The notes under the pieces: generated by a model | What the model was told of the DNA's origin: nothing | Database searches by the model: none | Seen by the model: the letters and a program-made list of their open reading frames with translations, nothing else | Source of the DNA: an uncultured delta proteobacterium | GTDB lineage: Bacteria > Desulfobacterota > Syntrophobacteria > BM002 | Assembly (NCBI GenBank): GCA_963712115.1 | Contig: CAVQGX010000063.1 | Span: 1 to 23,898 of the forward strand | Direction: 5' to 3' | Length of the DNA: 23,898 nt | Shown: one piece after another, positions 3,320-23,764 of the stretch | Layout: the number at the start of each line of letters is the position of its first letter | Numbering within the stretch: position 1 is the stretch's first letter | Position numbers and translations under genes: made by a program

Positions 3320-4017
3320 ATGATAATGATGAGAAAAGATAAAGTTAGCGTTATCAGGTTATACTATCTGGTATAGGAAGAGCCAGAACAACCTTTTCCT
3401 AAAGCTTATTACAGGGCTAGGGCCTGACACAGGTTTTACTCACATACAAACCATGTCTTACAGATTAGCAATGCTGGTATGGAGTGTTCATTTACTTAGC
3501 CAAATGGCCCTTGTATTTTCAAGGACCCAAAACTTTATGATATGCTTGTAGATACTTTGAGCACGCGGAGATATAAAATCGGTCATGCGTTTAGACCTAA
3601 TGAGCGAATTGTTTTCAGCTGCCCAGAGCCCTACTGAATCTTCTCAAGAAACTTCTCGAGATTCTTTATCTAAAGGTGTCTCGAGATTACCCGGCAGGTT
3701 GTGACGTACTAAAAATCAATCAAAACATCAGGATATTCTAACACGACAACTGTATAAGATTATTCATGCAATTGTTTATTTCGAAGTACTATAAATATTT
3801 TTAGAATTTTCACACCTTACAAATGTTTTATTTTATATATAGACAAAACCACTTCCTAATATTAATGACGTTAGTTATGAATATTTAGAAAAAGCTTCGT
3901 CGCAATAGCGAAGAAAAAATTGGTAATATTGTTTGAGCAGCCAGTGTCTTCATCGACAAAAATTTTAGAATCTCTTAGCGATTTATTGCTCATGACAACA
4001 CAAAACTAAAGACCTAA
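3320..4017 (+). pseudogene. Multiply frameshifted sulfotransferase-fold/P-loop-like gene remnant (absent from the ORF track)
   Basis: Hand translation across frames gives ILSGIGRARTTF (3361-3396), FLKLITGLGPDTGF, NAGME, PCIFKDPKL, IGHAF, MSELFSAAQS and LPGRL*, broken by stops and frameshifts. These resemble G(T)GR(A)GTT and R-x7-S PAPS-binding motifs. Ends are approximate. Confidence 0.6.
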
Positions 4018-6119: not shown

Positions 6120-6149
6120 TTGACACACAATTCTCCTTCAGGCTAGTAT
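6120..6149 (+). promoter_or_regulatory. sigma70-type promoter of paralog 1
   Basis: TTGACA (6120-6125), 18 bp, TAGTAT (6144-6149). Shares TCCTTCAGGCTAGTAT with the promoter at 22197. Confidence 0.75.
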
Positions 6150-6286: not shown

Positions 6287-7690
6287 ATGACATTTGAGAA
6301 GGCACCACTGCTAATTCCCGTGGAAAATCAGGTGCGCGAACTTGATCCCAAGCTTCTGCTCGCCTGCATTGCAGCGAGGCGTGGCTTTTCAGCGGTGATC
6401 GGCTCACACCGGGAGATAGACTTCCGCATTGCTTCATTTCCTAGAAGTCTATATCTCTGCAAAAGCTTTACGGTTCGTAACCTTAAGATGTTCCGCATTA
6501 TGCACAAGCTCGGACATGAAATCGTTTCTTGGGACGAGGAAGCGCTTGTCCACTTGCCGCCCGAAATGTATTACTCACGCCGTCTTTCTCCCTTAACAAT
6601 GAAATATATATCCCATCTATTTGCATGGGGAGCGGATAACGCCGAACTTTGGCGACAATATCCCGAATTCCCAGCCGGATTGCCGATTCATATAACCGGC
6701 AATCCTCGCAGCGACATGATGCGGCCTGAGATGTGTGCTTTCTACGAAAATGAGGTTAAAGAAATTCGAAGCCTTTACGGTGAGTTCATCCTCATCAACA
6801 CTAATTTCAATCACGTAAATGCCTTTTTCCCAGCACAGAATCTGTTTCAGCCGGTAAAAAGTCCTGGAGAGGAGCCGGAGTTCGGTAAAGCTGGGAGAGG
6901 GATGACCCGAGAATTCGCTGAAGGGTTTAGAGATCACAAGCGGGCTATTTTCGAGGACTTTCAACGCCTCGTCCCGCAGCTTGAACAGGCCTTTCCAAAT
7001 TATAAGATCGTTGTCCGGCCTCATCCGACCGAGAGTCAAGAAGTCTATAAAGAAATTGCTGCCCAATGCGAGCGGGTGCAGGTGACCAACGAGGGTAACG
7101 TTGTCCCCTGGCTCATGGCTACCAGAGCTCTCATTCATAATGGCTGTACCACTGGGGTTGAGGCTTACGTGATGGGTGTCCCCGCCATATCCTACAGGGC
7201 AACAATCAATGAGTACTACGACTACGGGTTCTATCGCTTGCCCAACCTGCTGAGTCACCAATGTTTTGACTTCGAAGAGCTGCAAATAACCCTGGGGAAA
7301 ATACTGGCCGGCGAACTTGGGGCTGCGGATGGAGAAGTACGAAAGAAATTAGTCGACCATTATTTGGCGGCACAGGATGGCCAACTAGCCAGTGAAAGGA
7401 TCATCAATGTTCTAGAAGAGATGGTGGAAAACCGTTCCACATTGCCAAGGCCTTCTCCACTCCAGCGATTTGGCGGCTGGTGCACGGCAAATGGCCGTCG
7501 CCTGCTGAAACGGGCCAAGGCTTATCTCCCTGGTACGCATGCCCCACCCGAGTTTCATCGACATCGTTATCCTGGTATTTCACTCGAGGAACTGAGTGCA
7601 CGTATAGGAAAATTCCAGCAGCTATTGAACGACGAGAGAGAACTGAGTCTAGAAGAACTATTTCCCCATATTTTTCGGATTAGCGCGTGA
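6287..7690 (+). CDS. Surface carbohydrate biosynthesis protein (TIGR04396-like), paralog 1, 467 aa
   Basis: PVENQVRELD.KLLLA N-terminus, WDEEALV, FAWG, TGNPR.D, ILINTNF, VVRPHPTE, IHNGCTTGVEA. GGAGG RBS. Confidence 0.85.
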   Translation: MTFEKAPLLIPVENQVRELDPKLLLACIAARRGFSAVIGSHREIDFRIASFPRSLYLCKSFTVRNLKMFRIMHKLGHEIVSWDEEALVHLPPEMYYSRRLSPLTMKYISHLFAWGADNAELWRQYPEFPAGLPIHITGNPRSDMMRPEMCAFYENEVKEIRSLYGEFILINTNFNHVNAFFPAQNLFQPVKSPGEEPEFGKAGRGMTREFAEGFRDHKRAIFEDFQRLVPQLEQAFPNYKIVVRPHPTESQEVYKEIAAQCERVQVTNEGNVVPWLMATRALIHNGCTTGVEAYVMGVPAISYRATINEYYDYGFYRLPNLLSHQCFDFEELQITLGKILAGELGAADGEVRKKLVDHYLAAQDGQLASERIINVLEEMVENRSTLPRPSPLQRFGGWCTANGRRLLKRAKAYLPGTHAPPEFHRHRYPGISLEELSARIGKFQQLLNDERELSLEELFPHIFRISA

Positions 7691-7709
7691 GGCAAAACGG
7701 AGGACCAGC

Positions 7710-8579
7710 ATGAAGATCTTTGTTTTAGGGACAGGAAAGTCTGGAACTACCGCTCTCTTATATAAGATTGCCGAAGGGCTGACAAACTGCAAGGTTTTTT
7801 CGGGAGGTCAACCTGGAAAATACGCAGGCGACTACGAAAACGTTGTCTACAAGCATACATACGAAGAGCGTAAAGGCAAAAGTTTCAATCTCCTCAATGA
7901 ACATCTCCAGAAAGAGCACTACGACCGTAAAATCTGGATAGCCAGAGATCCTAGGGATGCCGCTGTCAGCCGCATGCTCTACAGATGGCACAAGCTTTAC
8001 TGGTGGCACAGGGGCTATACGGAGAAGAAGAAGCAATATCTAGCGCATCTGGATCTGGTAATGAAAAAGGAAAGAGATCCGAGAGCCATTCCCTTTCACG
8101 TCATATGCCGCTACGCTGGTCACCGAAACGCCTGGCCTATCAGCGCGGAGGAAGTGGTGGAGGAAGAACGGATCCGCTATCGAAACATGTGTAACTTCGT
8201 GAGAAGTCTCGGTGAGGATTGGTATCATTTCACCTACGAGTCAATGGTGAGCAAGAATTTTGACGGCTTGAATGAATATGTCGGCTTTCAGGTAAAGGAA
8301 GACGCAGAGATCCCCACGTCCACGGGCAAGGCTAAGGTGGTCAGAAAGAAGACCACCGGAGACTGGCGCCATTGGTTCACCGAAGAAGATGTGGAACTTT
8401 TCAAGTCCGCTTACCTGTCCTACATGGCGTTGATCGGCTATGATTGCGACGATTGGGCTCTGAGCAAGAATCCTGTCATTGAGGCAGAGTACTCGTCCGC
8501 CTATATGCAGAGTCTACCTCGCAGAGCACCTTTGGATGTGATCCGACACTACAGGGAACGGTTGGTGAAGCGGGGTTGA
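7710..8579 (+). CDS. Sulfotransferase-domain protein, paralog A1
   Basis: 5'-PSB-like GTGKSGTT, 3'-PB RDPRDAAVS, YE motif and C-terminal RKK..GDWRHWFT. GGAGG RBS. Confidence 0.8.
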   Translation: MKIFVLGTGKSGTTALLYKIAEGLTNCKVFSGGQPGKYAGDYENVVYKHTYEERKGKSFNLLNEHLQKEHYDRKIWIARDPRDAAVSRMLYRWHKLYWWHRGYTEKKKQYLAHLDLVMKKERDPRAIPFHVICRYAGHRNAWPISAEEVVEEERIRYRNMCNFVRSLGEDWYHFTYESMVSKNFDGLNEYVGFQVKEDAEIPTSTGKAKVVRKKTTGDWRHWFTEEDVELFKSAYLSYMALIGYDCDDWALSKNPVIEAEYSSAYMQSLPRRAPLDVIRHYRERLVKRG

Positions 8580-11879: not shown

Positions 11880-11909
11880 TTGACTCAAGCTGATCAGTCG
11901 GGCTAATAT
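11880..11909 (+). promoter_or_regulatory. sigma70-type promoter of paralog 2
   Basis: TTGACT (11880-11885), 18 bp ending GGC, TAATAT (11904-11909). Same geometry as paralogs 1 and 3. Confidence 0.65.
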
Positions 11910-12040: not shown

Positions 12041-13444
12041 ATGAAAACCACTAAGGCAACATTGCTCATGCCAGTTGAGAATCAGGTACGCGAACTTGAT
12101 TCCAAAGTCCTGCTCGCCTGTGTTGCCGCCAGACATGGTTTCTCCTCGGTGATCGGTTTTCGCCGGGAGATACACTTTCACATTTCTTCTTTTCCCCCGA
12201 GCATCTACCTCTCCAAGAGCATGACGGCGGCCAGTGACCTTGTGTTCCGAATTATGCGAAATCTGGGTCATGAAATTGTAGCCTGGGATGAAGAAGCGCT
12301 GGTGCACCTGCCGCCCGAGATCTATTACTCTCGCCGCTTATCCCCCGTGGCTATGGCCTTGGTATCCCACATGTTCGCCTGGGGGCTAGACAACGCTGAG
12401 CTCTGGCGCCGATATTCCCAATTGCCCAATGGGGCCGAAATCGATATTACCGGAAACCCTCGCAACGATCTACTAAGGCCCGAAATCCGTCCTTATTACG
12501 GCAAAACGGTGGAAGGGCTACGAAAGAAATACGGAGATTTCATTCTCATCAACACCAATTTCAATCACGTAAATGCCTTTTATCCGGGGCTAAATCTGAT
12601 CGTGTCCTCGAACAAACCGGGGGAACAACCCACGTATGGAAGGGCAGCAAGGGGCATGAGCCAGGAGTATGCAGAGGGACTGCGAGACCATAAACAGACC
12701 ATCTTTGAGAAATTCCAAGAACTTATCCCTGCTTTAGAGAAAGAGTTCCCAGAATGCACCATTGTTGTTCGCCCTCACCCCACAGAAAATCAAGAAGTGT
12801 ATCGCAACATCGCTGCACGCTGCAGTCGGGTGCGGGTAACCAATGAGGGCAATGTGGTTCCCTGGCTCATGGCCACACAGACGGTTATCCATAACGGCTG
12901 TACCACCGGTGTCGAAGCATACGCAATGGGCGTGCCGGCTATTTCATACAGGGCCGTGGTTAATGAGTATTACGACTACGGTTTCTATCGCTTACCCAAC
13001 CTGCTCAGTCACCAGTGCTTTGACTTCGAGGAGTTGCGGCTCACCTTGGGGGAAATTCTTGCCGGCAAGCTGGGGCCGGCTGCTGGAGAGGAGCGCAAGA
13101 TGCTAGCCGATGAGTATTTGGCGGCCCTAGATGGGCCACTGGCCTGTGAGCGCATAGTGGACATTTGTAATAAAATGTTAGATGGGTCGTCCGAAATCTC
13201 TAGACCACAATTACACCGTTGGCTGAAGGGATATTGCACGGCAAAGATCCGCACACTGAAAAGAAAATTCAAGGCGCGCCTTCCGAGGGCCCGCAATAAA
13301 CCGGAGTTTCACCGCCATCGCTATCCTGAAATTGCCCTCGAGGAGATGGGTGAACGAATATCAAGGTTTCAGCAAGTGCTGGGCGACACTGGGAAACTGC
13401 AGGTGGAAAAGATGATTGGTCAGTTTTTTCTGATCAGCCCCTGA
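12041..13444 (+). CDS. Surface carbohydrate biosynthesis protein (TIGR04396-like), paralog 2, 467 aa
   Basis: Colinear with 6287..7690, with the same motifs and length. Confidence 0.85.
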   Translation: MKTTKATLLMPVENQVRELDSKVLLACVAARHGFSSVIGFRREIHFHISSFPPSIYLSKSMTAASDLVFRIMRNLGHEIVAWDEEALVHLPPEIYYSRRLSPVAMALVSHMFAWGLDNAELWRRYSQLPNGAEIDITGNPRNDLLRPEIRPYYGKTVEGLRKKYGDFILINTNFNHVNAFYPGLNLIVSSNKPGEQPTYGRAARGMSQEYAEGLRDHKQTIFEKFQELIPALEKEFPECTIVVRPHPTENQEVYRNIAARCSRVRVTNEGNVVPWLMATQTVIHNGCTTGVEAYAMGVPAISYRAVVNEYYDYGFYRLPNLLSHQCFDFEELRLTLGEILAGKLGPAAGEERKMLADEYLAALDGPLACERIVDICNKMLDGSSEISRPQLHRWLKGYCTAKIRTLKRKFKARLPRARNKPEFHRHRYPEIALEEMGERISRFQQVLGDTGKLQVEKMIGQFFLISP

Positions 13445-13449
13445 AGTGA

Positions 13450-13466
13450 CCGGGGGGGATTGACCC
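13450..13466 (+). repeat. Left 17-bp target-site duplication of IS copy 1
   Basis: CCGGGGGGGATTGACCC, repeated exactly at 14873-14889. Confidence 0.95.
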
Positions 13467-14872
13467 TGTTATTGACAAGTGATTTGTCCGGTTCATTTTG
13501 ACAAATGAAATGTCCGCTCCATAGTTTTCAGTCCTCCCCCTGTTACCATGACGAGGCTTTAGCAACGGGGATACGGTTGGATGCCTGGAGTTCAGTGCTG
13601 TGAGTTACTTGTTTTGGTACCGGCTTTCCTTTGGCATTGTAGCGACCCAGCAATCTAGTACCCCACCAGACAGTGTGTGTATTATCGAGGTGTTTTCGCA
13701 CAATAACACGTAAGCCTGCACAGGAGGCTCTTCCTGGCTGTTTGTCTATTTGGAGTCGCACCTTGTTCATGACCACAGTATTGTCTTTAGCGACAGTGCG
13801 ACCTTCTTCGAGACAGAGAATTTGGTTGAGGTTAGCGTTGCCAGCAGTGACAAAAGCACTTTGTGGGAGAGCTGGCTCTCTTTTGAATTCTTGATTGTAC
13901 TGAGGCAAAAAGCGCTGACGCAGATACCGATTTGCCCCTTTGATGGTGGAGATTCTAGCGATTCGCAACTCATTAACCAACCGATCCTGTAGGGTGCGAT
14001 TGATGCGCTCACTTCGTCCTCGTGCTTGCGGCGAGTAGGAGGGAATATGCTCTACGCCGAGACGAGCCAAACAGCGTCCAACTTGGGTGAGGTTTTCCTT
14101 GTCCACCCGACCTCCTGCCTTGGGAGTATGGAAGGCCCAGCTGGCCCGATCGGTATACAGTGCCATGGGGATCCCGTAGGTTTCTGTGACCTCGCCCAGG
14201 GCTGTCATCACCGCCCAGGTGGACTCTTTTTTCCACAGCTGGGCATACAGAAGACCGTTGGTGGCGTCATCGACTACGGTAATCATCGTTTGGTATTGCT
14301 CTGCGTTTCGGGCCAACCACCTATGACGGCTGCCATCCAGATGGAGCATTTCTCCAAACAGGGCCCGGCGCTCTCGTCTTTTGCGGTGTCTGTCGCGTTT
14401 ACGTCTTTTTTTGACTAGGCCTGCTTCCTGGAGTGCTTTTTTGACAAAGCTGTATGAAAGGCTTACTTCATGTTCTCTGCGTGCAATCCCATGGAAATGG
14501 CGGACATTAAAGCCCTGATATCGCTCGCGGTAGAGGCGAAGTACCTTCTCAACCTCCGCCACCGGTGCCCGACGGGGCGAGGGTTTTCCTGTACGACGGT
14601 CCAAAAGACCGTCATAGCCATAGAGCTCGTAGCGCCCTCTCCAACGCCTCAAACTACGTGGGCTTATCGCCAAAATGTCAGCTGCTTGTGTCCACTTCAA
14701 CTGTCCGCTCATCGCTCTAAGGATCACTTCTTGAATCTTCATTGCCCGCTCCAGCGCGGATGGCCCGTACAGTTTCATAGGCAACCCTCCTCGGTTACCT
14801 TTGTACAGCCTTCCGCCGAAAAGCGGACATTTCATTTGTTAAAATATGCGGTCACATTATGTACCAACTACA
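13467..14872 (-). mobile_element. 1406-bp insertion sequence, IS1202-family/ISNCY (IS481-related), copy 1
   Basis: TGT...ACA ends. About 50-bp imperfect IRs share ACAAATGAAATGTCCGCT and carry an internally repeated TGTCCG-like motif. 17-bp direct repeats. Near-identical to 20775..22180. Confidence 0.93.
13543..14778 (-). CDS. DDE transposase (HTH + integrase core), ISNCY/IS1202-like
   Basis: LHLDGSRHRW, YTDRAS, SPQARGRSERINRTLQDRL. GAGGAGG RBS favours ATG 14778. Confidence 0.92.
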   Translation of the reverse strand: MKLYGPSALERAMKIQEVILRAMSGQLKWTQAADILAISPRSLRRWRGRYELYGYDGLLDRRTGKPSPRRAPVAEVEKVLRLYRERYQGFNVRHFHGIARREHEVSLSYSFVKKALQEAGLVKKRRKRDRHRKRRERRALFGEMLHLDGSRHRWLARNAEQYQTMITVVDDATNGLLYAQLWKKESTWAVMTALGEVTETYGIPMALYTDRASWAFHTPKAGGRVDKENLTQVGRCLARLGVEHIPSYSPQARGRSERINRTLQDRLVNELRIARISTIKGANRYLRQRFLPQYNQEFKREPALPQSAFVTAGNANLNQILCLEEGRTVAKDNTVVMNKVRLQIDKQPGRASCAGLRVIVRKHLDNTHTVWWGTRLLGRYNAKGKPVPKQVTHSTELQASNRIPVAKASSW

Positions 14873-14889
14873 CCGGGGGGGATTGACCC
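14873..14889 (+). repeat. Right 17-bp target-site duplication of IS copy 1
   Basis: Identical to 13450-13466 and directly followed by TTGACA. Confidence 0.95.
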
Positions 14890-14919
14890 TTGACACAGGT
14901 GGTTACTTTATCCTATAGT
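14890..14919 (+). promoter_or_regulatory. sigma70-type promoter of sulfotransferase paralog A2
   Basis: TTGACA (14890-14895), 18 bp, TATAGT (14914-14919). Confidence 0.75.
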
Positions 14920-15037
14920 CCGCGATTCTAGCAGAAAATAACCATCATTTCTGCTTGTCGGCTGATAGATTTCGCCCTTTTTGCAGATCGGATCGAGCCG
15001 TTAAGATTTAGCCTTTATCTTGTTTTGGAGAATCAGC

Positions 15038-15910
15038 ATGAAAATCTTAATATTAGGACGCGGAAAGACAGGAACTACGGCGATCTTGTTCAAAATAGCG
15101 GGAGGGTTACCAAATTGCCAAGCTTTTTCCGGGGGAGATGTGGGCAAACATTTGGCTAAAGATCTGGGTGACTATGAGAATGCTGTTTACAAGCAGACTT
15201 ACAGTGAGCGAAAAGGCAGAACTTTGGACGCCTACAGGGATCATGCTGCTAAAACAAATTACGATCGCAAGATCTGGATGGCCCGAGATCCCCGAGATGC
15301 AGCAGTGAGTCGAATGCTCTACAGATGGCACAAAGGTAACTGGGGGCAATGGAAGCTTTACGGAAAACATCTAGAGCTGGTCCAGAAAAAAGAACAGGAT
15401 CCCAGATCCATCCCCTTCCACGTGCTCTTCAGTTATATCGGGGAGGATGGCCGGCCCTTGACTACAGATGAATTGGTAGAAATGGAAAGGGTACGTTACC
15501 AGCAAATGAGCGATTTTGCCGAATCCCTGGGAAGCGATTGGTTCATTTTTAAGTATGAAGACATGATCGAGAAAAACTACGACGGGTTGAATGAATATCT
15601 CGGATTCGAAATAGTAGATGAGGCTGAAATTCCGACGACAACCAAGAAATCCAAAGTGGTTAGGAAAAAAGCGTACGGTGATTGGCGTCACTGGTATACT
15701 GAGGAGGACGTAGATCTTTTCAGGCCTGCTTACTTGCCTTACATGAAGACCATGGGCTACGACTGCAACGACTGGAGCCTTAGTGCAAACCCGGTAATCG
15801 AGCCCGAGTACTCATCCATGTACATGAAGGGCCTAATCCGCAAGCACACTCAATATATTATCCGTTCTATCAAAGACTTTGTCTTAAGGCCTTTTGTAAA
15901 ATCTCGTTAG
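15038..15910 (+). CDS. Sulfotransferase-domain protein, paralog A2
   Basis: GRGKTGTT, RDPRDAAVS, RKKAYGDWRHWY. Colinear with 7710..8579. GGAG RBS favours ATG 15038. Confidence 0.8.
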   Translation: MKILILGRGKTGTTAILFKIAGGLPNCQAFSGGDVGKHLAKDLGDYENAVYKQTYSERKGRTLDAYRDHAAKTNYDRKIWMARDPRDAAVSRMLYRWHKGNWGQWKLYGKHLELVQKKEQDPRSIPFHVLFSYIGEDGRPLTTDELVEMERVRYQQMSDFAESLGSDWFIFKYEDMIEKNYDGLNEYLGFEIVDEAEIPTTTKKSKVVRKKAYGDWRHWYTEEDVDLFRPAYLPYMKTMGYDCNDWSLSANPVIEPEYSSMYMKGLIRKHTQYIIRSIKDFVLRPFVKSR

Positions 15911-15943
15911 TGTCCATCCGGAAACCTAGTTTTCGGATGGACA
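15911..15943. terminator. Hairpin between convergent genes (bidirectional terminator or REP/MITE remnant)
   Basis: TGTCCATCCGGAAA-CCTAG-TTTTCGGATGGACA: 14-bp stem with one G-T pair and no clear U-tract. Confidence 0.55.
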
Positions 15944-15954
15944 ATGATTAACTT

Positions 15955-17061
15955 TCATTCAAACCTGACCACTTCCTTTAGTACCTGTGAATATTTTTCA
16001 CTGGTCATCTCCTCAATGGCCCCTAATTCCTGCCCGGTTGATGTTCTCTTGGTAGAGAGACGACCATCCGCAATACTATAATCTTCTGCATTGAAGCTCG
16101 TGTCTAGCTTAATCGAAAATTTATTGAAGGTCGGTCTTAATAGAATATCATCAAACTCAATACCCAGAAAATCTGCCAGATAGCGCATAACTGCTTCAGT
16201 CTTGCTTGGCAAGTCTTCGAACTTGATAAGACAAACCCTATCTCCGTATTTCTCTTTATTCCAAAGCATGGCTTGGGCGCACTCATTCCACTGGTGTAGT
16301 GCCAGGCTGACATCTTCATACCTCTCGGGCCAGTGAATCCTAGCAAGTGGAAGCCAATTTTTGGGGTCCCTGATTAGTGAAATCAAGCGTCCGTCTGGAT
16401 AAGTCTCAAAAAATAACTCCATATTCTCTTTAACTATTGCCAGCCTCGGGCTGAAAGCTGTAATGAACTTCTTTTGTCCGTTGTAGTTCTGATTGTTAAG
16501 CCAGGCGCCGAAGTAAGAAGTCAGGTAACCATTAAATATATCGCGTGCTGTTATCGGTTGAACTAAATCCACATATTCTAAAAAAATCTTTCTTTGCAAA
16601 GCAGCAATAAAGACAAAGGGGAAAGTTTCTTTGTCTTCTTTCCCCTTCACATAGCCTTCTTGGTTGTATTTGCTGACTATATCTTCAAAAAGAATTCCGA
16701 ACCAGCTCTCCGGACGGTCATTGAGATCTATTCTAGGCCAATGGTGTTTTTCCGGGTAGCCAATCATCAACTCGTGAGGATGATTATGTAGCTCTGGATG
16801 CCCATCAAAAAGCTGGTTTAGAAAAGATCCGCCCGAACCTTGAATCTGAGAAATCAGTGCAAGTGGCGAAGTCACAGGAAAAACATGTTCTAAACATATG
16901 CGACTTAGGTCCTCTGGATGCAACAGGCTTTCATTTGATTCCTTTCTGAGCATCCATATTCTGTATCTTATCTTGACGTATTTACCTATAAAATAGCTTA
17001 TGACTCTCTCACTAAGCCTTTGCTTTATATCTTTTTCTCTCTCCCAGTTTTGAGAATTCAC
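15955..17061 (-). CDS. Sulfotransferase-family protein, paralog B2 (PAPS motifs degenerate)
   Basis: Colinear with 18360..19409, but has QGSGGS and RDPKNWLPL in place of QRSGGT and RDPKNWYPS. Confidence 0.78.
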   Translation of the reverse strand: MNSQNWEREKDIKQRLSERVISYFIGKYVKIRYRIWMLRKESNESLLHPEDLSRICLEHVFPVTSPLALISQIQGSGGSFLNQLFDGHPELHNHPHELMIGYPEKHHWPRIDLNDRPESWFGILFEDIVSKYNQEGYVKGKEDKETFPFVFIAALQRKIFLEYVDLVQPITARDIFNGYLTSYFGAWLNNQNYNGQKKFITAFSPRLAIVKENMELFFETYPDGRLISLIRDPKNWLPLARIHWPERYEDVSLALHQWNECAQAMLWNKEKYGDRVCLIKFEDLPSKTEAVMRYLADFLGIEFDDILLRPTFNKFSIKLDTSFNAEDYSIADGRLSTKRTSTGQELGAIEEMTSEKYSQVLKEVVRFE

Positions 17062-17073
17062 CCAACAGTCCTT

Positions 17074-18351
17074 CTAATTCACTCTGCAATTTACAATGAA
17101 CTCCACATACTCTGCCAGTACGTCCCTATTGTTTTGACCACCGTAAACAACTTCCAATAGAAAGCTGTTCACATTCCCATCCCCATAGGGCACGCTCATA
17201 CTCTTTTTTCGTAATGACTCTAATGCCCGCTCTAGCTCAGCTTCGTTATGTATTGTCCAACACGCCCCACACTCTTCGAATAACATTGTATTTGCATGGA
17301 GATATTTCAGGTAAAGAACAGGTTTACCTTGCATGAGCGCCTCTGTGATGACGCTGGAACCGATAATAAGTACTACGTCCGCCCACTCACATAATTCTGG
17401 AGTAAGTACATGGGAAACATTGGGTAGCTGCATGTTATCAAAAAGGTAGGCCTCCCTACCAATACGCGTATGAGGCTTAACCACTGCTTCAATTTCTCTG
17501 AGACTTGCCAACAGGTCAATTGTATTATGCATCCTCTCTACATCAATCTTGCACCGCGGTTTCGATGGCATGAAGACTACTCTTAATCTTTCTGGATCCC
17601 TGCCAGTTGATTCAATTATTCTAGGCAATATTTTCTTGTTCTGAGCTATCCACTCACCACAAAATCTAGCACTTCCCAAGACAACTATTTTTTCTCTGGC
17701 AATGCCGGAACTTACCAGAACATCCTTGCGTAAATGGTTTTGAACAATCACATAGTCAAATCGATTAAACTTATAAAATCTTTGTCTTGACGAGGAACCG
17801 ACTTTGTTGAATTTATTGGTATACAAGTATACTCCATGAGGGAGGGCTAGAGTCGGTATAGATTTCTCTTTAGCTGCCGTCAGAAGCACGTTTACAACAT
17901 ATCGGTTTGGTATTATATGGTCAAAACACAAAGCTTGTGCTTTACTCTGTTCAAGTAGATAATGGGCCCAATTTGTTTGGTAAAATCCCATCCTCGTTAT
18001 CTCATATAATATGCGGCCTATTATCTTGGCTGTTATTTGACTCAGACTTACAAAAAGCGACTTTTTTTCTTGACCATGAGAATTAGATTTCTTGCGGTCG
18101 GTGGAAAACCACTGAAAAAGACAACGCATGGTATGATGCAAGGCATTCATTTTCTGGTCAAAAGCATCATAAATTGATGCTACTGTAACCCCCTGTTCTT
18201 TCAAAAAGTTGAGACGATAATCATTCTCAATATCGTATCGTGGATTTATGCAATAAACGGCAACTGCATAATTGTCTTGCTTCATCTTCCACACTATGGG
18301 CGTAATATGATCTACATCATTGAAATGTCTAACGCAAAACAAGTACATCAC
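17074..18351 (-). CDS. Putative GT-B-fold transferase (CDP-glycerol glycerophosphotransferase / nonulosonate-transferase-like)
   Basis: LPHG, VLGSARF, VVKPHTR, ADVVLIIGSSVITEALMQGKPV. Tightly linked between the two B sulfotransferases. Confidence 0.55.
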   Translation of the reverse strand: MMYLFCVRHFNDVDHITPIVWKMKQDNYAVAVYCINPRYDIENDYRLNFLKEQGVTVASIYDAFDQKMNALHHTMRCLFQWFSTDRKKSNSHGQEKKSLFVSLSQITAKIIGRILYEITRMGFYQTNWAHYLLEQSKAQALCFDHIIPNRYVVNVLLTAAKEKSIPTLALPHGVYLYTNKFNKVGSSSRQRFYKFNRFDYVIVQNHLRKDVLVSSGIAREKIVVLGSARFCGEWIAQNKKILPRIIESTGRDPERLRVVFMPSKPRCKIDVERMHNTIDLLASLREIEAVVKPHTRIGREAYLFDNMQLPNVSHVLTPELCEWADVVLIIGSSVITEALMQGKPVLYLKYLHANTMLFEECGACWTIHNEAELERALESLRKKSMSVPYGDGNVNSFLLEVVYGGQNNRDVLAEYVEFIVNCRVN

Positions 18352-18359
18352 CCGTGTCC

Positions 18360-19409
18360 TTAAAAGCGGATAGCCAAATTTAGTACTTGCCCATAAAGCT
18401 CCTTCGAAGTATTCTCGATAAATTCGAGTTCCTCATGCGCAAGAGTCTTGTATCTTTGGAGCGTACTATTGATAATACCGTTTTTTTCTGGTTCAAAACT
18501 GGTATTAGCTCTTATTGGATATTTATTAAAAGTGGGTTCCAACAAGATATCCTCAAATTCTATTTCTAAGAATCCAGCCAGATAACGCATCACTGATGCA
18601 GTTTTGCTGATCAAATCTTCAAATGTCAGGATACAAACACGATCTTCATATCTATCTTTGTTTCGTAACATTGCCTGGGCACTCTTTTTCCACAGGCCTA
18701 CTCCATCCCGAATACCCCGGCAAATTCTAGGCTTGTGTCTGATCGCGGAGGGATACCAGTTTTTCGGATCCCTAATAATGGAAATCAATCTGCCGTCGGG
18801 ATATATTGCGAAAAACGACTCCATATTATCCTTGGCCATTGACAGTCTTGCGGTGAAGGCTGTAATGAATCTCTTTTGGCCGCAAGTGTTTTGATTATTG
18901 AGCCAGGCGCCAAAATAAGAGGTCATGTAACCGTCGAATACATCTCTGGGTGTCAGCGAATCGATTGAACCCACGTAATCCAAAAATATTTCCCTTTGCA
19001 CAGAGGGCAGAAATAGAAAGAGAAAAGCGTCGTCTCGCTTTTTTTCCTTCTTGTAGCCCTTCTTAAAATGACTGAGGACACTGTACTCGAAGAGGGTTTC
19101 GAGCCACCCATTTGGATTGTCACTGAGATCTATTTTGGGCCATGTATACTTGGTTGGATAGCCAATCTTCAATTCATGGGGATGAGCATGGAGTTCCGGA
19201 TGGCCATCAAAGAGTTGGCTCAGTAAGGTGCCCCCGGAGCGCTGGACTTGAGAAATCAAGGCAAGGGGAGCAGTAACAGGTCGAGTATGTTCTACACAGG
19301 CCTGGTAGAGAGTAGGTAGATGGATCCTACTTTCTCTAAAGTCCTTATTTGTCTTCTTTATGTAAGAAATTCCCATAATGTTCCCAGCATAAGATTCGGC
19401 TGACCCCAC
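18360..19409 (-). CDS. Sulfotransferase-family protein, paralog B1 (start uncertain)
   Basis: QRSGGTLLSQLFDGHP (5'-PSB), IRDPKNWYPS (3'-PB), FEDLI. Confidence 0.85.
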   Translation of the reverse strand: MGSAESYAGNIMGISYIKKTNKDFRESRIHLPTLYQACVEHTRPVTAPLALISQVQRSGGTLLSQLFDGHPELHAHPHELKIGYPTKYTWPKIDLSDNPNGWLETLFEYSVLSHFKKGYKKEKKRDDAFLFLFLPSVQREIFLDYVGSIDSLTPRDVFDGYMTSYFGAWLNNQNTCGQKRFITAFTARLSMAKDNMESFFAIYPDGRLISIIRDPKNWYPSAIRHKPRICRGIRDGVGLWKKSAQAMLRNKDRYEDRVCILTFEDLISKTASVMRYLAGFLEIEFEDILLEPTFNKYPIRANTSFEPEKNGIINSTLQRYKTLAHEELEFIENTSKELYGQVLNLAIRF

Positions 19410-19423
19410 TCAATTTCGCGCCT

Positions 19424-19452
19424 AACCTAACTTCTCCCCTTCATTTTGTCAA
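19424..19452 (-). promoter_or_regulatory. sigma70-type promoter of the leftward three-gene operon
   Basis: On the minus strand: TTGACA (19452-19447), 17 bp, TAGGTT (19429-19424). Confidence 0.6.
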
Positions 19453-19470
19453 TGCAAACCCCTCAAGTAA

Positions 19471-20758
19471 GGTAACGTCAAGAGTTTTGTGTCAGCAGAA
19501 AAGGGGTAGCTATTCCCTGCTGTTTGTTCTCATAGGTGAACACTGCAAATAGTATTCTTTCCACGCTGGTTCTGTCTGAGAAGACGCCCATGGGGCGAGT
19601 TCTTCTTCTCACCTCTAGGAACCTACGTTCGATGGCATTTGTGGTTCTGGTGGCTCTTCTCCAGGCTTCATCTTGAAACTTGAAAAAGTTCATCAGGTCA
19701 TCCAGGTCGTCTCTTAGGCACTTTACGGCTTTGGGATAGATGTTTTGCCAATTGTCAGCGAAGAGTCGAGCAGCTTTGCGAGCTGCCCTTTTGTTGGTAG
19801 CGTACATGATTCGATGAAGGTCAAGTTTAATCGGTTGCTGATCTTTCTTTTTAGCCTTGTTCAGGATATTTCTGATTTTATGGGCCCAGCAGCGCTGCAG
19901 CATTATTTGTGGGTAGACCAGAGGCAGAGCGGCCAAAAGTCCGGCTCCACCGTCTGCCACGATCAGTTTTACACCCTCGCCGGTGAGGCCGCGACGGTAA
20001 AGATCGTTGACAAAAGACTCCCAGGCAATAGTGCTTTCTCCCGGCGCCAGGCGAAAGTCGATTATCTCTTTCTTGCCGTCCAGCCGAATGCCCAAGGCCA
20101 CCAGCACCGGACGACGAATAGCTCCAGCACCAGTTTTGCGAGCCATGACTACACCATCGAACACTAACACCTTGTAGTGATTGCCCAGAGGACGTCGATG
20201 AAAGGCTTCAACCACTTGATCAAGCTGTTTGCCCACGCGGCTAACCGTCGCGGCGCTGACCGGCTCTCCTAAAACAGGCAACAACGCTTTGGCCACCTTG
20301 CGGGTGGAAACTCCCAAGACAAAACAGGCCAGAATCATCCTATCGATGTGTTGAGCTCGTCTGGCATATGCTCGAACCACTTTGAGCCCACTGTAGTGAC
20401 GAGTGCGCGGCACCTGAAGCTCAATGTCTCCCAACTCGGTGAGCAAATGGCGACTGTAAGAGCCATTGCGCCGATCCGCCTCTGCACTAATGTCCAGCTC
20501 TTCAAGATAGGTGTCAATGTGGCCTCTCATCTGGCCTTCAAGAATCATCTTCAAAGCCGTTCTGCCATGAGATCGATAGTCCGAACTCCATTCGAATCCG
20601 TGAAGATTCATTTCCTTGATAACTTCGAAGGCTTGCGCTACATTGGTAATTGTCGCAGTTGCTTGCGGCATTGGGGTACCTCCTTTATTGGGGTTTCGGC
20701 AAAATTCCCCTATGAGGTACCCCTTTTCTTTCTCTGACACAAGAAATGATACATTACC
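19471..20758 (-). mobile_element. 1288-bp IS256-family element with a 9-bp target duplication
   Basis: IRs GGTAACGTCAAGAGTTTTGTGTCAG and GGTAATGTATCATTTCTTGTGTCAG. DR CTCAAGTAA at 19462-19470 and 20759-20767. Confidence 0.93.
19478..20671 (-). CDS. IS256-family (Mutator-like) DDE transposase
   Basis: RNGSY.R, VPRTR, GVSTRKV, VFDG, VADG, QRCWAH, TTNAIER. AAAGGAGG RBS favours ATG 20671. Confidence 0.95.
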   Translation of the reverse strand: MPQATATITNVAQAFEVIKEMNLHGFEWSSDYRSHGRTALKMILEGQMRGHIDTYLEELDISAEADRRNGSYSRHLLTELGDIELQVPRTRHYSGLKVVRAYARRAQHIDRMILACFVLGVSTRKVAKALLPVLGEPVSAATVSRVGKQLDQVVEAFHRRPLGNHYKVLVFDGVVMARKTGAGAIRRPVLVALGIRLDGKKEIIDFRLAPGESTIAWESFVNDLYRRGLTGEGVKLIVADGGAGLLAALPLVYPQIMLQRCWAHKIRNILNKAKKKDQQPIKLDLHRIMYATNKRAARKAARLFADNWQNIYPKAVKCLRDDLDDLMNFFKFQDEAWRRATRTTNAIERRFLEVRRRTRPMGVFSDRTSVERILFAVFTYENKQQGIATPFLLTQNS

Positions 20759-20774
20759 CTCAAGTAATGGCTGC
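20759..20774 (+). repeat. Left 16-bp target-site duplication of IS copy 2 (its first 9 bp are also the IS256 DR)
   Basis: CTCAAGTAATGGCTGC, repeated at 22181-22196. Confidence 0.93.
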
Positions 20775-22180
20775 TGTTATTGACAAGTGATTTGTCCGGT
20801 TCATTTTGACAAATGAAATGTCCGCTCCATAGTTTTCAGTCCTCCCCCTGTTACCATGACGAGGCTTTAGCAACGGGGATACGGTTGGATGCCTGGAGTT
20901 CAGTGCTGTGAGTTACTTGTTTTGGTACCGGTTTTCCTTTGGCATTGTAGCGACCCAGCAATCTAGTACCCCACCAGACAGTGTGTGTATTATCGAGGTG
21001 TTTTCGCACAATAACACGTAAGCCTGCACAGGAGGCTCTTCCTGGCTGTTTGTCTATTTGGAGTCGCACCTTGTTCATGACCACAGTATTGTCTTTAGCG
21101 ACAGTGCGACCTTCTTCGAGACAGAGAATTTGGTTGAGGTTAGCGTTGCCAGCAGTGACAAAAGCACTTTGTGGGAGAGCTGGCTCTCTTTTGAATTCTT
21201 GATTGTACTGAGGCAAAAAGCGCTGACGCAGATACCGATTTGCCCCTTTGATGGTGGAGATTCTAGCGATTCGCAACTCATTAACCAACCGATCCTGTAG
21301 GGTGCGATTGATGCGCTCACTTCGTCCTCGTGCTTGCGGCGAGTAGGAGGGAATATGCTCTACGCCGAGACGAGCCAAACAGCGTCCAACTTGGGTGAGG
21401 TTTTCCTTGTCCACCCGACCTCCTGCCTTGGGAGTATGGAAGGCCCAGCTGGCCCGATCGGTATACAGTGCCATGGGGATCCCGTAGGTTTCTGTGACCT
21501 CGCCCAGGGCTGTCATCACCGCCCAGGTGGACTCTTTTTTCCACAGCTGGGCATACAGAAGACCGTTGGTGGCGTCATCGACTACGGTAATCATCGTTTG
21601 GTATTGCTCTGCGTTTCGGGCCAACCACCTATGACGGCTGCCATCCAGATGGAGCATTTCTCCAAACAGGGCCCGGCGCTCTCGTCTTTTGCGGTGTCTG
21701 TCGCGTTTACGTCTTTTTTTGACTAGGCCTGCTTCCTGGAGTGCTTTTTTGACAAAGCTGTATGAAAGGCTTACTTCATGTTCTCTGCGTGCAATCCCAT
21801 GGAAATGGCGGACATTAAAGCCCTGATATCGCTCGCGGTAGAGGCGAAGTACCTTCTCAACCTCTGCCACCGGTGCCCGACGGGGCGAGGGTTTTCCTGC
21901 ACGACGGTCCAAAAGACCGTCATAGCCATAGAGCTCGTAGCGCCCTCTCCAACGCCTCAAACTACGTGGGCTTATCGCCAAAATGTCAGCTGCTTGTGTC
22001 CACTTCAACTGTCCGCTCATCGCTCTAAGGATCACTTCTTGAATCTTCATTGCCCGCTCCAGCGCGGATGGCCCGTACAGTTTCATAGGCAACCCTCCTC
22101 GGTTACCTTTGTACAGCCTTCCGCCGAAAAGCGGACATTTCATTTGTTAAAATATGCGGTCACATTATGTACCAACTACA
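20775..22180 (-). mobile_element. 1406-bp insertion sequence, IS1202-family/ISNCY, copy 2
   Basis: Same ends and length as copy 1. Three substitutions seen by eye (20932, 21865, 21900). Has its own 16-bp DR. Confidence 0.93.
20851..22086 (-). CDS. DDE transposase, ISNCY/IS1202-like (copy 2)
   Basis: Identical to the copy 1 protein except RRTGKP to RRAGKP. Confidence 0.92.
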   Translation of the reverse strand: MKLYGPSALERAMKIQEVILRAMSGQLKWTQAADILAISPRSLRRWRGRYELYGYDGLLDRRAGKPSPRRAPVAEVEKVLRLYRERYQGFNVRHFHGIARREHEVSLSYSFVKKALQEAGLVKKRRKRDRHRKRRERRALFGEMLHLDGSRHRWLARNAEQYQTMITVVDDATNGLLYAQLWKKESTWAVMTALGEVTETYGIPMALYTDRASWAFHTPKAGGRVDKENLTQVGRCLARLGVEHIPSYSPQARGRSERINRTLQDRLVNELRIARISTIKGANRYLRQRFLPQYNQEFKREPALPQSAFVTAGNANLNQILCLEEGRTVAKDNTVVMNKVRLQIDKQPGRASCAGLRVIVRKHLDNTHTVWWGTRLLGRYNAKGKPVPKQVTHSTELQASNRIPVAKASSW

Positions 22181-22196
22181 CTCAAGTAATGGCTGC
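22181..22196 (+). repeat. Right 16-bp target-site duplication of IS copy 2
   Basis: Identical to 20759-20774 and directly followed by TTGACA. Confidence 0.93.
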
Positions 22197-22226
22197 TTGA
22201 CAGAAAATCTTCCTTCAGGCTAGTAT
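22197..22226 (+). promoter_or_regulatory. sigma70-type promoter of paralog 3
   Basis: TTGACA (22197-22202), 18 bp, TAGTAT (22221-22226). Homologous to 6120-6149. Confidence 0.75.
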
Positions 22227-22360
22227 TCCAACTCGCTCATTGGAAAATTACCCGCAACAAAGTGAGATTATATTTTACCTTAAACCATCAACAATTACCT
22301 CCCACGAGGCGCGCACAGATCAGACTTGATCTGCACGCTAATGGGAAACCACGGGAGAGT

Positions 22361-23764
22361 ATGAACTCAGGCAAAGCTACATTGCTCATGCCAGTTGAGA
22401 ATCAGGTGCGAGAACTCGATTCCAAGCTCCTGCTTGCCTGTATAGCAGCAAGGCGAGGGTTTTCCTCGGTGATCGGACCCCGCCGCGAAATGCATATTCA
22501 GATAACCTCTTTTCCCAGGTCCATCTACCTTGCCAAAAGCATTCCAGTCCACCGCAACATTATATTCAAGATTATGCGCAAGCTTGGCCATGAAATCCTG
22601 GCGTGGGATGAAGAAGCACTAGTCCACCCTCAAGCCGAGACCTACTACAAGCGTCGCGTCTGTCCTCTGGGGATAAAATATGTGTCACATCTCTTTGCTT
22701 GGGGTGAAGATAACGCCCAGTTGTGGCAACAGTATCCAGAATTGCCCGCCGGGATACCTATCCATGTCACCGGTAATCCGCGTGGTGACTTGCTGCGACA
22801 TGAAATGCGCCATATTTACCAGGGGGATGTCAAACATCTCCGCAGTACCCACGGCGATTTCATTCTGGTAAATACTAATTTCAATCACGTAAATGCCTTT
22901 TCTCCAGACCTGAATCTCTTTAGCCCAGCTAAAAAACCCGGAGAGGAGCCCAAGTTCGGCCGAGCTGCCAAGGGCATGAGCCGTAATTACGCCGAAGGAT
23001 TACGTAATCATAAGAAAGCCATTTTCCGAGACTTCCAGCGAATCATCCCTGCTCTCGATAAAGCATTCCCGCAATACACCATTGTTGTCAGGCCTCATCC
23101 CACAGAAGACCAGGAAATTTATCGTAATATTGCATCACAGTGTGAGCGGGTGCGGGTAACTAACGAAGGCAACGTTGTCCCATGGATTTTGGCCTCACAG
23201 GCGGTCATACACAACGGCTGTACCACTGGGGTGGAGGCGTATGTTCTGGGGGTGGCTGCCATTTCCTATAGGCCAACAGTAAATGATTATTATGACTTGG
23301 GCTTTTATCGTCTACCAAATTTGCTTAGCTACCAGTGCTTCGATTTAGAGGAGTTGCGGGGTACGCTTGGAGATATTCTTGCAGGCAGGCTCGGACCTCC
23401 AGATGGCGATGAGCGCGAAGTGCTTATAAACCACTATTTGGTAGCACTGGACGGCCCTCTGGCCTGTGAGCGCATGGTCGACGTGCTCGAGGGAATCGTG
23501 CAGGGCAGCTACGAATTGTCAAGGCCCCCGGTGCGTGATCGTTTGGCAGGCCGGTCCATGTCAGCCATCCGCACCCTTATAAAGCGATGCAAGGAACACA
23601 TTCCTGGTTCACACAACCGTCCTGAGTTCCAGCGCCATCGTTACCCTGGAGTTTCGCTCGAAGAAATTCAGGCGCGACTGTTACGGTTTCAGCAGGTACT
23701 AGGCGACAACAGAGAATTGAAGGTGGAACAGAAATCCCAACACTTCTTCGTGATTAGTGGATGA
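22361..23764 (+). CDS. Surface carbohydrate biosynthesis protein (TIGR04396-like), paralog 3, 467 aa
   Basis: Colinear with the other two paralogs when started at ATG 22361 (GGGAG RBS). Same motifs. Confidence 0.85.
   Translation: MNSGKATLLMPVENQVRELDSKLLLACIAARRGFSSVIGPRREMHIQITSFPRSIYLAKSIPVHRNIIFKIMRKLGHEILAWDEEALVHPQAETYYKRRVCPLGIKYVSHLFAWGEDNAQLWQQYPELPAGIPIHVTGNPRGDLLRHEMRHIYQGDVKHLRSTHGDFILVNTNFNHVNAFSPDLNLFSPAKKPGEEPKFGRAAKGMSRNYAEGLRNHKKAIFRDFQRIIPALDKAFPQYTIVVRPHPTEDQEIYRNIASQCERVRVTNEGNVVPWILASQAVIHNGCTTGVEAYVLGVAAISYRPTVNDYYDLGFYRLPNLLSYQCFDLEELRGTLGDILAGRLGPPDGDEREVLINHYLVALDGPLACERMVDVLEGIVQGSYELSRPPVRDRLAGRSMSAIRTLIKRCKEHIPGSHNRPEFQRHRYPGVSLEEIQARLLRFQQVLGDNRELKVEQKSQHFFVISG

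Follow-up and report, generated by a model that had tools for sequence, protein, structure and literature searches.

The window analyzed here, the whole 23,898-nucleotide contig CAVQGX010000063.1 of an uncultured delta proteobacterium (4.9-Mb, 70-contig assembly GCA_963712115.1), contains two copies of a 1406-bp insertion sequence (IS) that is an intact, recently active member of the IS1202 family, from its long-duplication (ISTde1-type) branch. Our principal conclusion, which we hold with high confidence, is that this element and its relatives target sigma70-type promoters. Insertion occurs in a single orientation, with one joint at the upstream edge of the -35 box and the other 16-17 bp further upstream; the promoter retains its -35 and -10 boxes together with 16-17 bp of native upstream DNA, and the transposase gene is divergent from the target promoter.

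Insertion sites in the source genome

According to the original prediction, both copies have TGT..ACA ends and lie between direct repeats, of 17 and 16 bp, respectively, that abut a TTGACA -35 box followed, after 18 nucleotides (nt), by a -10 hexamer; all these features are exact in the sequence (Table 1). The two copies differ at 3 of the 1406 positions, and their target duplications have no sequence relation to each other. At both sites, the gap between TTGACA and the duplication on the IRL side is zero (we denote as IRL, for left inverted repeat, the IS end on the side of the 5' end of the transposase gene, and as IRR the opposite end). The transposase open reading frames (ORFs) of both copies are on the minus strand and thus are transcribed away from the promoters, which is the common orientation that had been proposed for the two insertions. 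The second promoter was thought to be backed by an uninterrupted homolog, and indeed, such a paralogous promoter is present in the window (87% identity to 22196-22226), along with a third version. Each IS copy also contains a 24-nt subterminal inverted repeat (13495-13518 and 14822-14845 in copy 1). The 17-bp duplication of copy 1 itself holds a second hexamer of this kind, TTGACC (13460-13465 and 14883-14888), 7 bp upstream of the abutting TTGACA. A contig from an RNA library among the public runs covers positions 15092-15300 only, and the uncovered parts carry no weight as evidence.

Table 1. Coordinates of the IS copies, target duplications, promoters and promoter-served genes in the window
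Feature	Position	Strand	Description
IS copy 1	13467..14872	-	1406 bp, TGT..ACA; IRL end at 14872, IRR at 13467
Transposase ORF, copy 1	13543..14835	-	430 aa as called
Target duplication 1, IRR side	13450..13466		17 bp, CCGGGGGGGATTGACCC
Target duplication 1, IRL side	14873..14889		17 bp, CCGGGGGGGATTGACCC; between IS copy 1 and the -35 box
Promoter 1	14890..14919	+	TTGACA (14890-14895), 18 nt, TATAGT (14914-14919); by motif only
Gene served by promoter 1	15038..15910	+	paralog of the sulfotransferase-domain gene 7710-8579
IS copy 2	20775..22180	-	1406 bp, TGT..ACA; transposase ORF 20851-22143
Target duplication 2, IRR side	20759..20774		16 bp, CTCAAGTAATGGCTGC
Target duplication 2, IRL side	22181..22196		16 bp, CTCAAGTAATGGCTGC
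Promoter 2	22197..22226	+	TTGACA (22197-22202), 18 nt, TAGTAT (22221-22226); by motif
Gene served by promoter 2	22262..23764	+	one of three paralogs
Uninterrupted paralogous promoter	6120..6149	+	TTGACA-N18-TAGTAT, ahead of 6287-7690
Third paralogous promoter	11880..11909	+	TTGACT-N18-TAATAT, ahead of 12041-13444

The site of copy 1 is also represented in its empty form. One public sediment metagenome contig (depth 2.5, with 31 letters on the shorter side) joins position 13448 to 14872 and skips 1423 bases, which is exactly the 1406-bp IS plus one 17-bp repeat.

A BLASTN search detected 7 copies of the element in the genome, at 99.6-100% identity, with the transposase frame open in all 7; two of these copies run into contig ends. 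For the five copies with an assembled IRL-side flank, the duplication is followed by TTGACA in four cases and by TTGACT in one, and motif-level -10 boxes lie 17-18 nt beyond the -35 box at the own-genome sites; one of the target promoters directly precedes a tRNA-Pro gene. The sixth site is readable from an IS-free stretch of 742 bp in another part of the assembly that is 99.06% identical to the left flank and carries the same 16 bases followed by TTGACC. At the seventh site, the duplication begins with TACCTCATC, but the contig breaks off on the IRL side and the flank there is missing. Altogether, the duplication is followed by TTGAC at 6 of the 6 readable sites of the source genome, so that the oriented flank comparison suggested along with the original prediction gives a uniform result. 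The base preceding TTG at these sites is C five times and G once (n = 6).

Several contigs of this assembly (C53, C32, C44, C9, C35, and C34) are mutual repeats at 98-99.8% identity over kilobases, with contamination estimated at 5.99%; sequences of close strains are probably mixed here, and the IS-free version of the C53 site may be a strain variant. Between the IS copies on contigs C62 and C35, the duplications are swapped, owing either to recombination of the copies or to a switch in the assembly. The query transposase had a match in 5 of 40 kin genomes searched, with the best identity at 34%, and these genomes yielded no additional sites. The RpoD of the source genome is identical, over its C-terminal half, to proteins that their sources label Syntrophobacterales or Syntrophobacteria.

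The insertion pattern in relatives

A protein search returned at least 7998 homologs of the transposase at E <=1e-20. We scanned contigs from a one-genome-per-species collection together with metagenome contigs and obtained 160 loci with transposases 48-88% identical, from bins labeled as Rokubacteria/Methylomirabilota, Acidobacteriota, Gemmatimonadales, Deltaproteobacteria, Chloroflexi, and others. Among these, we counted 47 unique sites that combine TGT..ACA ends with a verified duplication; locus L156 was excluded because its apparent duplication falls within the end of another IS, L108 is the L016 site again, the IRL pattern is missing from L089, and the start of L091 is ambiguous. The duplication is 16-18 bp long at 45 of the 47 sites (16 bp in 30 cases, 17 bp in 11, and 18 bp in 4), with single cases of 15 bp and 14 bp. 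Beyond the duplication, the IRL-side flank starts with TTG in 40 of the 47 sites and with TTGAC in 24. A position count across 42 sites shows T40, T36, G39, A29, and C29 at +1 to +5, followed by T26 at +24, A30 at +25, and T30 at +29, that is, TTGAC, 17 nt, and TAnnnT. The logo of the IRR-side flanks of the same 42 sites contains no conserved feature, and the duplicated 16-17 bp of the relatives show no sequence conservation.

Because a choice of sites based on the flanks was to be avoided, in a second set, the IRL was located solely by the pattern of the IS tip, TGT-N15-TG-N-CCG. We found this pattern in 152 of the 160 loci; of the 48 starts that had been defined by a duplication and also carry the pattern, 46 coincide with the start it indicates. 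In the resulting 135 unique IRL-side flanks, each at least 60 nt long, TTG occurs at offsets 15-18 from the IS tip in 113 (offset 16 in 66, 17 in 34, 18 in 8, and 15 in 5), compared to 0-5 occurrences at each of the other offsets and a background of approximately 1.2% per offset elsewhere (binomial p ~1e-126). TTGAC is found at offsets 15-18 in 81 of the 135 flanks. The enrichment of TTG and of an in-register -10 box holds across the 135 flanks, and the outcome that would have counted against promoter targeting, namely, lack of TTGACA enrichment or of orientation bias, was not observed: TTGAC is enriched, and the orientation is fixed.

The original observation involved only 2 sites, such that chance or an artefact, whereby TTGACA would belong to the element itself or stem from assembly errors, had to be considered. 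We assign this explanation a practically negligible probability: the duplication sits between the IS and TTGACA, IS-free homologs keep TTGAC beside a single copy of the duplication, and the pattern recurs in 113 of the 135 flanks.

In the L038 locus (3749-3790), a stub of about 12 nt matching the IRL tip (TGTAGGGAGCAG) lies directly past the right-hand duplication and might be left over from an earlier insertion at this promoter. An ORF of at least 100 aa starts soon past the -10 box in 70 of 79 flanks compared to 271 of 395 random controls (p = 2e-4), but this test discriminates weakly in G+C-rich genomes and carries no weight in the argument.

The third set of flanks comes from a census of a single genome, a long-read Terriglobia bin in which a 1415-bp relative is present in 44 copies that are essentially 100% identical, 42 of which were recovered by end matching. 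Given that this genome contributed loci L057-L063 to the set of relatives, the two sets are not independent. A host flank is available for 38 copies; TTG is in place in 33 of these, TTGAC in 17, and TAnnnT at 16-18 nt in 28, as the flank comparison proposed at the outset would have it. Four of the 42 recovered copies are the second members of same-orientation pairs (L194, L198, L199, and L219 of genome G041), with a spacing of about 16-21 bp by coordinates. In the three pairs that were inspected (L194, L198, and L199), the arrangement is IS, 16-17 bp, IS, and the spacer is exactly the duplication of the first member, which is what reuse of one promoter predicts. Many of the copies in this census lack matching duplications, the flanks of different copies pair up, and the outer flanks of the second members of the pairs match the flanks of other copies; this pattern points to recombination among the 44 copies. 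A burst this recent leaves little time for selection to sort the insertions.

In more distant relatives, the pattern extends to a few readable sites. The family profile matched in 32 of 300 other genomes of the same phylum, and among the 29 loci examined there, 5 have a verifiable duplication of 15-17 bp, with transposases 28-46% identical to the query. Three of these five sites start with TTGACA or TTGATA, one has TGGAAT-N17-TAGACT, and the last lacks a clear promoter; none of the 29 loci yielded an element with a 27-28 bp duplication. A relative with 47% transposase identity is present in a plasmid of cultured Mesorhizobium (L181; NZ_CP083955, 1393-2440). This copy is truncated, with similarity lost past approximately residue 359, and its IRL lies 17 bp from a promoter-like TTGTCA-N17-TATATG that faces an annotated phd/vapC toxin-antitoxin operon.

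Proposed promoter recognition and its alternatives

If promoters rather than bare hexamers are targeted, a -10 box is expected in register with the -35 box, and such a box is present. TAnnnT occurs at 16-18 nt in 79 of the 113 TTG flanks, including 56 of the 81 with TTGAC and 23 of the 32 with TTGnn (73 and 27, respectively, for the relaxed nAnnnT), compared to 1.1% of random positions in the same loci (10.9% for nAnnnT). The 22 flanks without TTG, for which five windows were tried, display degenerate -35-like hexamers, such as CTGACT, TAGACG, TTTACG, and TCGCCA, and among these, 11 have TAnnnT and 16 have nAnnnT; at random positions with five windows, the respective values are 2.0% and 17.4%. 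The retention of the -10 box at sites with a weak -35 box indicates that whole sigma70-type promoters are targeted, not only the hexamer.

The main alternative is that a DNA-binding part of the transposase, perhaps the one that binds the similar hexamer at the IS ends, directly recognizes (C)TTGAC, with genic insertions subsequently lost and those at promoters persisting because they are harmless. Under this explanation, TTGAC is naturally the strongest signal and is in exact register with the joint. It also accommodates the last base of the duplication before TTG, which is C or G in 98 of the 113 flanks and T in 4, against 59% C/G expected from composition, and which may be due to what the transposase, and not sigma, prefers at the joint, as well as the TTGACA- and TTGGTA-type hexamers that are present in both tips of the window copy. 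However, TTGAC is rarely followed by TAnnnT at 16-18 nt in the background (607 of all 10839 occurrences in the host genome, and 5 of 268 random occurrences in the loci of the relatives), versus 56 of 81 at the insertions. The rule is also already followed in very recent expansions, one with 44 identical copies and the other, in the source genome, with 7 copies at >=99.6% identity. Furthermore, 11-16 of the 22 sites without TTG have a -10 box in register. The combination of a poor -35 box with an in-register -10 box would not be produced by a reader of TTGAC only, which favors recognition of the promoter as the holoenzyme sees it; nor can selection for harmless insertions fix the register. We consider direct reading combined with selection to be less likely than targeting through the polymerase, but it is a serious competitor.

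Our analysis leans toward targeting through the complex of RNA polymerase and sigma rather than through reading of the DNA alone. The transposase would dock on sigma region 4 or another part of the holoenzyme at the -35 box, and transposition presumably proceeds through a circular copy-out-paste-in intermediate. As implied by the general chemistry of DDE transposases, the edge of the -35 box is the point at which the 3' end of IRR attacks on the template strand, that of IRL strikes the opposite strand some 1.5 turns upstream, and gap repair creates the duplication; in the repaired product, a single copy of the duplication stands between the IRL and the -35 box. The claim of the original prediction that the transposase recognizes either the -35 box or promoter-bound RNA polymerase or sigma, with insertions leaving the core promoter intact, thus draws support from all three sets of flanks.

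When IRR and IRL are abutted, TTGnnn is found in the IRR of 26 of the 33 distinct elements, and nAnnnT follows 17 nt later in the IRL of 26 of the 33; the abutted window element reads TTGTCA-N17-CATAAT, and the hexamers in these elements are TTGTCA or TTGCTA in the IRR and CATGAT or CATAAT in the IRL, 17 nt apart. Judging by these motifs, the abutted ends could form a junction promoter of the circular intermediate, although the same bases are also parts of the inverted repeats. A complex prediction for the transposase and residues 500-590 of the RpoD of the source genome gave a best score of 0.30, compared to a mark of 0.32, and is evidence neither way.

Several observations weigh against promoter targeting through the polymerase, or against targeting as such. 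At positions 6-11 of the tips, the window element has TTGACA in the IRR (13472-13477 and 20780-20785) and TTGGTA in the IRL (14862-14867), and the relatives have TTGACA, TTAGCA, or GGAGCA; this tip hexamer may be a binding site of the transposase, in which case the protein would be able to read such a hexamer. The -35 signal (TTG in 113 and TTGAC in 81 of the 135 flanks) is stronger than is common in natural promoters, which fits direct reading of bases. Purifying selection against genic insertions could inflate the share of promoter sites, and 22 of the 135 flanks (about 16%) are without TTG, a few of them without any promoter motif. In addition, copies within one genome or in related genomes are non-independent, most of the relatives come from metagenome bins, and the promoters were called by motif only.

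A third possibility is that the cue is structural, that is, a bend, upstream wrapping, or polymerase-caused melting of promoter DNA, with no specific protein contact. The lack of sequence conservation in the duplicated 16-17 bp is compatible with such a cue, and so is the series of duplication lengths in the IS1202 subgroups (5-6, 16-17, and 27-28 bp), which are approximately one helical turn apart and might reflect a geometric ruler. In contrast, the exact register to the first T of the -35 box, combined with a -10 spacing that varies from 16 to 18 nt, is better explained by an anchor at the -35 box, and we regard a purely structural cue as quite improbable.

Under the sigma-docking scheme, the one-turn steps in the duplication lengths would mean that the cuts are made on one face of the DNA; the passages of the literature that we searched contain no remark to this effect. 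We tentatively extend this reasoning to a whole, widespread branch of the IS1202 family, which might be tethered by the transcription machinery and cut at the -35 edge and 1.5 helical turns upstream; the three duplication lengths would then represent one-turn steps of one transpososome that is positioned by different DNA-bound host proteins, XerC or sigma.

Family membership, related systems and implications

The assignment of the element to the IS1202 family, made in the original prediction from its ends and long duplications, is borne out by the transposase. The protein scores 340.6 bits against the NCBIfam profile NF033594 (ISNCY_2; cut-off 250) and fails the IS481 profile (113 bits versus a cut-off of 224); in a Pfam search, it matched helix-turn-helix (HTH) families at its N-terminus and yielded no Transposase_mut or MULE match, whereas the unrelated IS256-type gene nearby (19478-20740) did give such a match. 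The translation start is likely the ATG at 14778, behind GAGGAGGG, which gives a protein of 411 aa and is preferred because the homologs begin there. The IS1202 signature consists of a DDE triad, two extra aspartates between the first two D residues, and a glutamine seven residues past the E (10.1101/2022.12.17.520857; PMC10132070). Here, the six residues D167, D189, D190, D229, E276, and Q283 are invariant across 23 homologs as well as in comparison with two transposases of the ISAba32 subgroup, one of which is annotated as ISKpn21 (28% identity to both). The family is further characterized by termini of the form 5'-TGT ... ACA-3' and by another conserved block that each terminus carries near position 20; the window element has TGT/ACA at 13467 and 14872, and TG.CCG is found at IRL positions 19-24 in 152 of the 160 related loci.

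The AlphaFold2 model (mean pLDDT 72.8) predicts helices at 25-72 and 92-137, an RNase H fold at 163-317, and strands at 341-399, that is, the domain order HTH1-HTH2-RNase H-beta-barrel. The nearest solved structures to this predicted fold are IstA, TnsB, MuA, and retroviral integrases (8q4d, 7svw, 4fcy, and intasomes). We placed the element in the ISTde1-type branch because its duplications are 16-17 bp long, that is, 17 and 16 bp in the window and 16-17 bp at the other sites of the genome, compared to 15-18 bp in the ISTde1 subgroup. This subgroup is also described as carrying 5-10 inserted aa in the interval from the second D to the E; in a small alignment, the D229-E276 interval of the query and three relatives is only about 3 residues longer than that of the two ISAba32-subgroup proteins.

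The element resembles the described members of the ISTde1 subgroup in its size, TGT..ACA ends, and duplication length, in encoding just one transposase, which is composed of two HTH domains, a DDE catalytic domain, and a beta-barrel, and in the occurrence of this subgroup in shotgun assemblies from many phyla; for example, ISCARN53 is 1404 bp long, with a 16-bp duplication and a 407-aa transposase (PMC10132070, Table 7). The difference lies in the target, which is undescribed in the accounts of the subgroup that we consulted and is shown here to be the promoter. In the parts available to us, Harmer et al. 2023 report that no target was found for the groups with long duplications (PMC10132070), and Siguier et al. 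report targeting solely for the subgroup with 5-6 bp duplications (bioRxiv 10.1101/2022.12.17.520857). Our searches of full texts, which did not extend to supplementary tables or to the journal version of Siguier et al., retrieved no paper that ties IS1202, ISTde1, or ISNCY to promoters. The present findings thus provide a target for a subgroup whose target had been reported as not found.

The targeted subgroup, ISAjo2/ISAba32, which hunts dif, pdif, and xrs sites, shares with the element described here the DDE + DD + Q signature, the fixed orientation, the location of the target on the IRL side at a distance of one duplication from the IS, and the lack of an accessory targeting protein. In contrast to the 16-17 bp duplication and the promoter -35 box described here, these elements produce a 5-6 bp duplication next to a XerC/XerD site, and contact with DNA-bound XerC has been proposed (PMC10132070). 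The TnGBS integrative and conjugative elements, ISLre2, and ISKra4 insert in an oriented manner 15-17 bp upstream of the -35 box of sigmaA/sigma70 promoters, and for TnGBS, contact with the polymerase initiation complex has been proposed (PMC3942029). Docking on sigma, as envisaged above, parallels both proposals. The insertion position of the TnGBS, ISLre2, and ISKra4 elements matches the distal joint of the element described here, but those elements lie 15-17 bp from the -35 box, whereas here, the duplication fills this interval and one joint abuts the -35 box. Moreover, they encode Mutator/IS256-like transposases, whereas the transposase of the present element is IS1202/TnsB-like and belongs to an unrelated superfamily; the element thus acts like the Mutator-like (p-MULT) group without being a member. 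In the passages of the literature that we searched, promoter targeting is described only for the Mutator-like TnGBS, ISLre2, and ISKra4 elements, and accordingly, the element and its relatives represent another lineage of promoter-targeting transposases, unrelated to the first.

Among the best structural matches of the predicted transposase, that is, TnsB of Tn7 and of CRISPR-associated transposons (CAST), MuA, IstA of IS21, and retroviral integrases, target selection involves separate ATPases or host tethers, and several of these enzymes are aimed by a partner protein, whereas the IS described here encodes the transposase only. Harmer et al. modeled the ISAjo2 transposase, TnpAjo2, on TnsB and MuA.

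The window also contains a separate IS256-family element (19471-20758; transposase 19478-20740, PF00872 and NF033543; ends GGTAA.GT...TTGTGTCAG), which is flanked by a 9-bp duplication, CTCAAGTAA (19462-19470 and 20759-20767). The right copy of this duplication coincides with bases 1-9 of the 16-bp repeat at copy 2, and thus, two ISs are stacked upstream of one promoter. The genes served by the target promoters are parts of three paralogous gene cassettes (6287-8579, 12041-15910, and 22262-23764), in two of which a sulfotransferase-like gene follows; the paralog that was tested (6287-7690) matches TIGR04396, surface carbohydrate biosynthesis protein. The three cassettes share the same promoter, with a leader of roughly 135 nt, and are embedded in a glycan-modification locus that also encodes TylF-like and other methyltransferases, a GT2 glycosyltransferase, sulfotransferases, and a transketolase-like protein.

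To our knowledge, few bacterial transposons pick their targets through the host's own DNA-bound machinery. The promoter rule would explain how dozens of copies of such an element, 44 in one genome, can be accommodated without wrecking genes, and also why the duplications are so long. Because each IS copy points at a promoter, these elements provide a free, motif-independent promoter marker in uncultured phyla, and orientation-specific insertion beside promoters by a single protein may serve genetics. For the study of how transposases read promoters, they offer a second, independent case. If the tethering of this whole branch of the IS1202 family proves true, this would be a bacterial counterpart of the tethering of Ty3 and retroviral integrases that arose independently of TnGBS, and could serve as a single-protein tool for placing DNA upstream of promoters.

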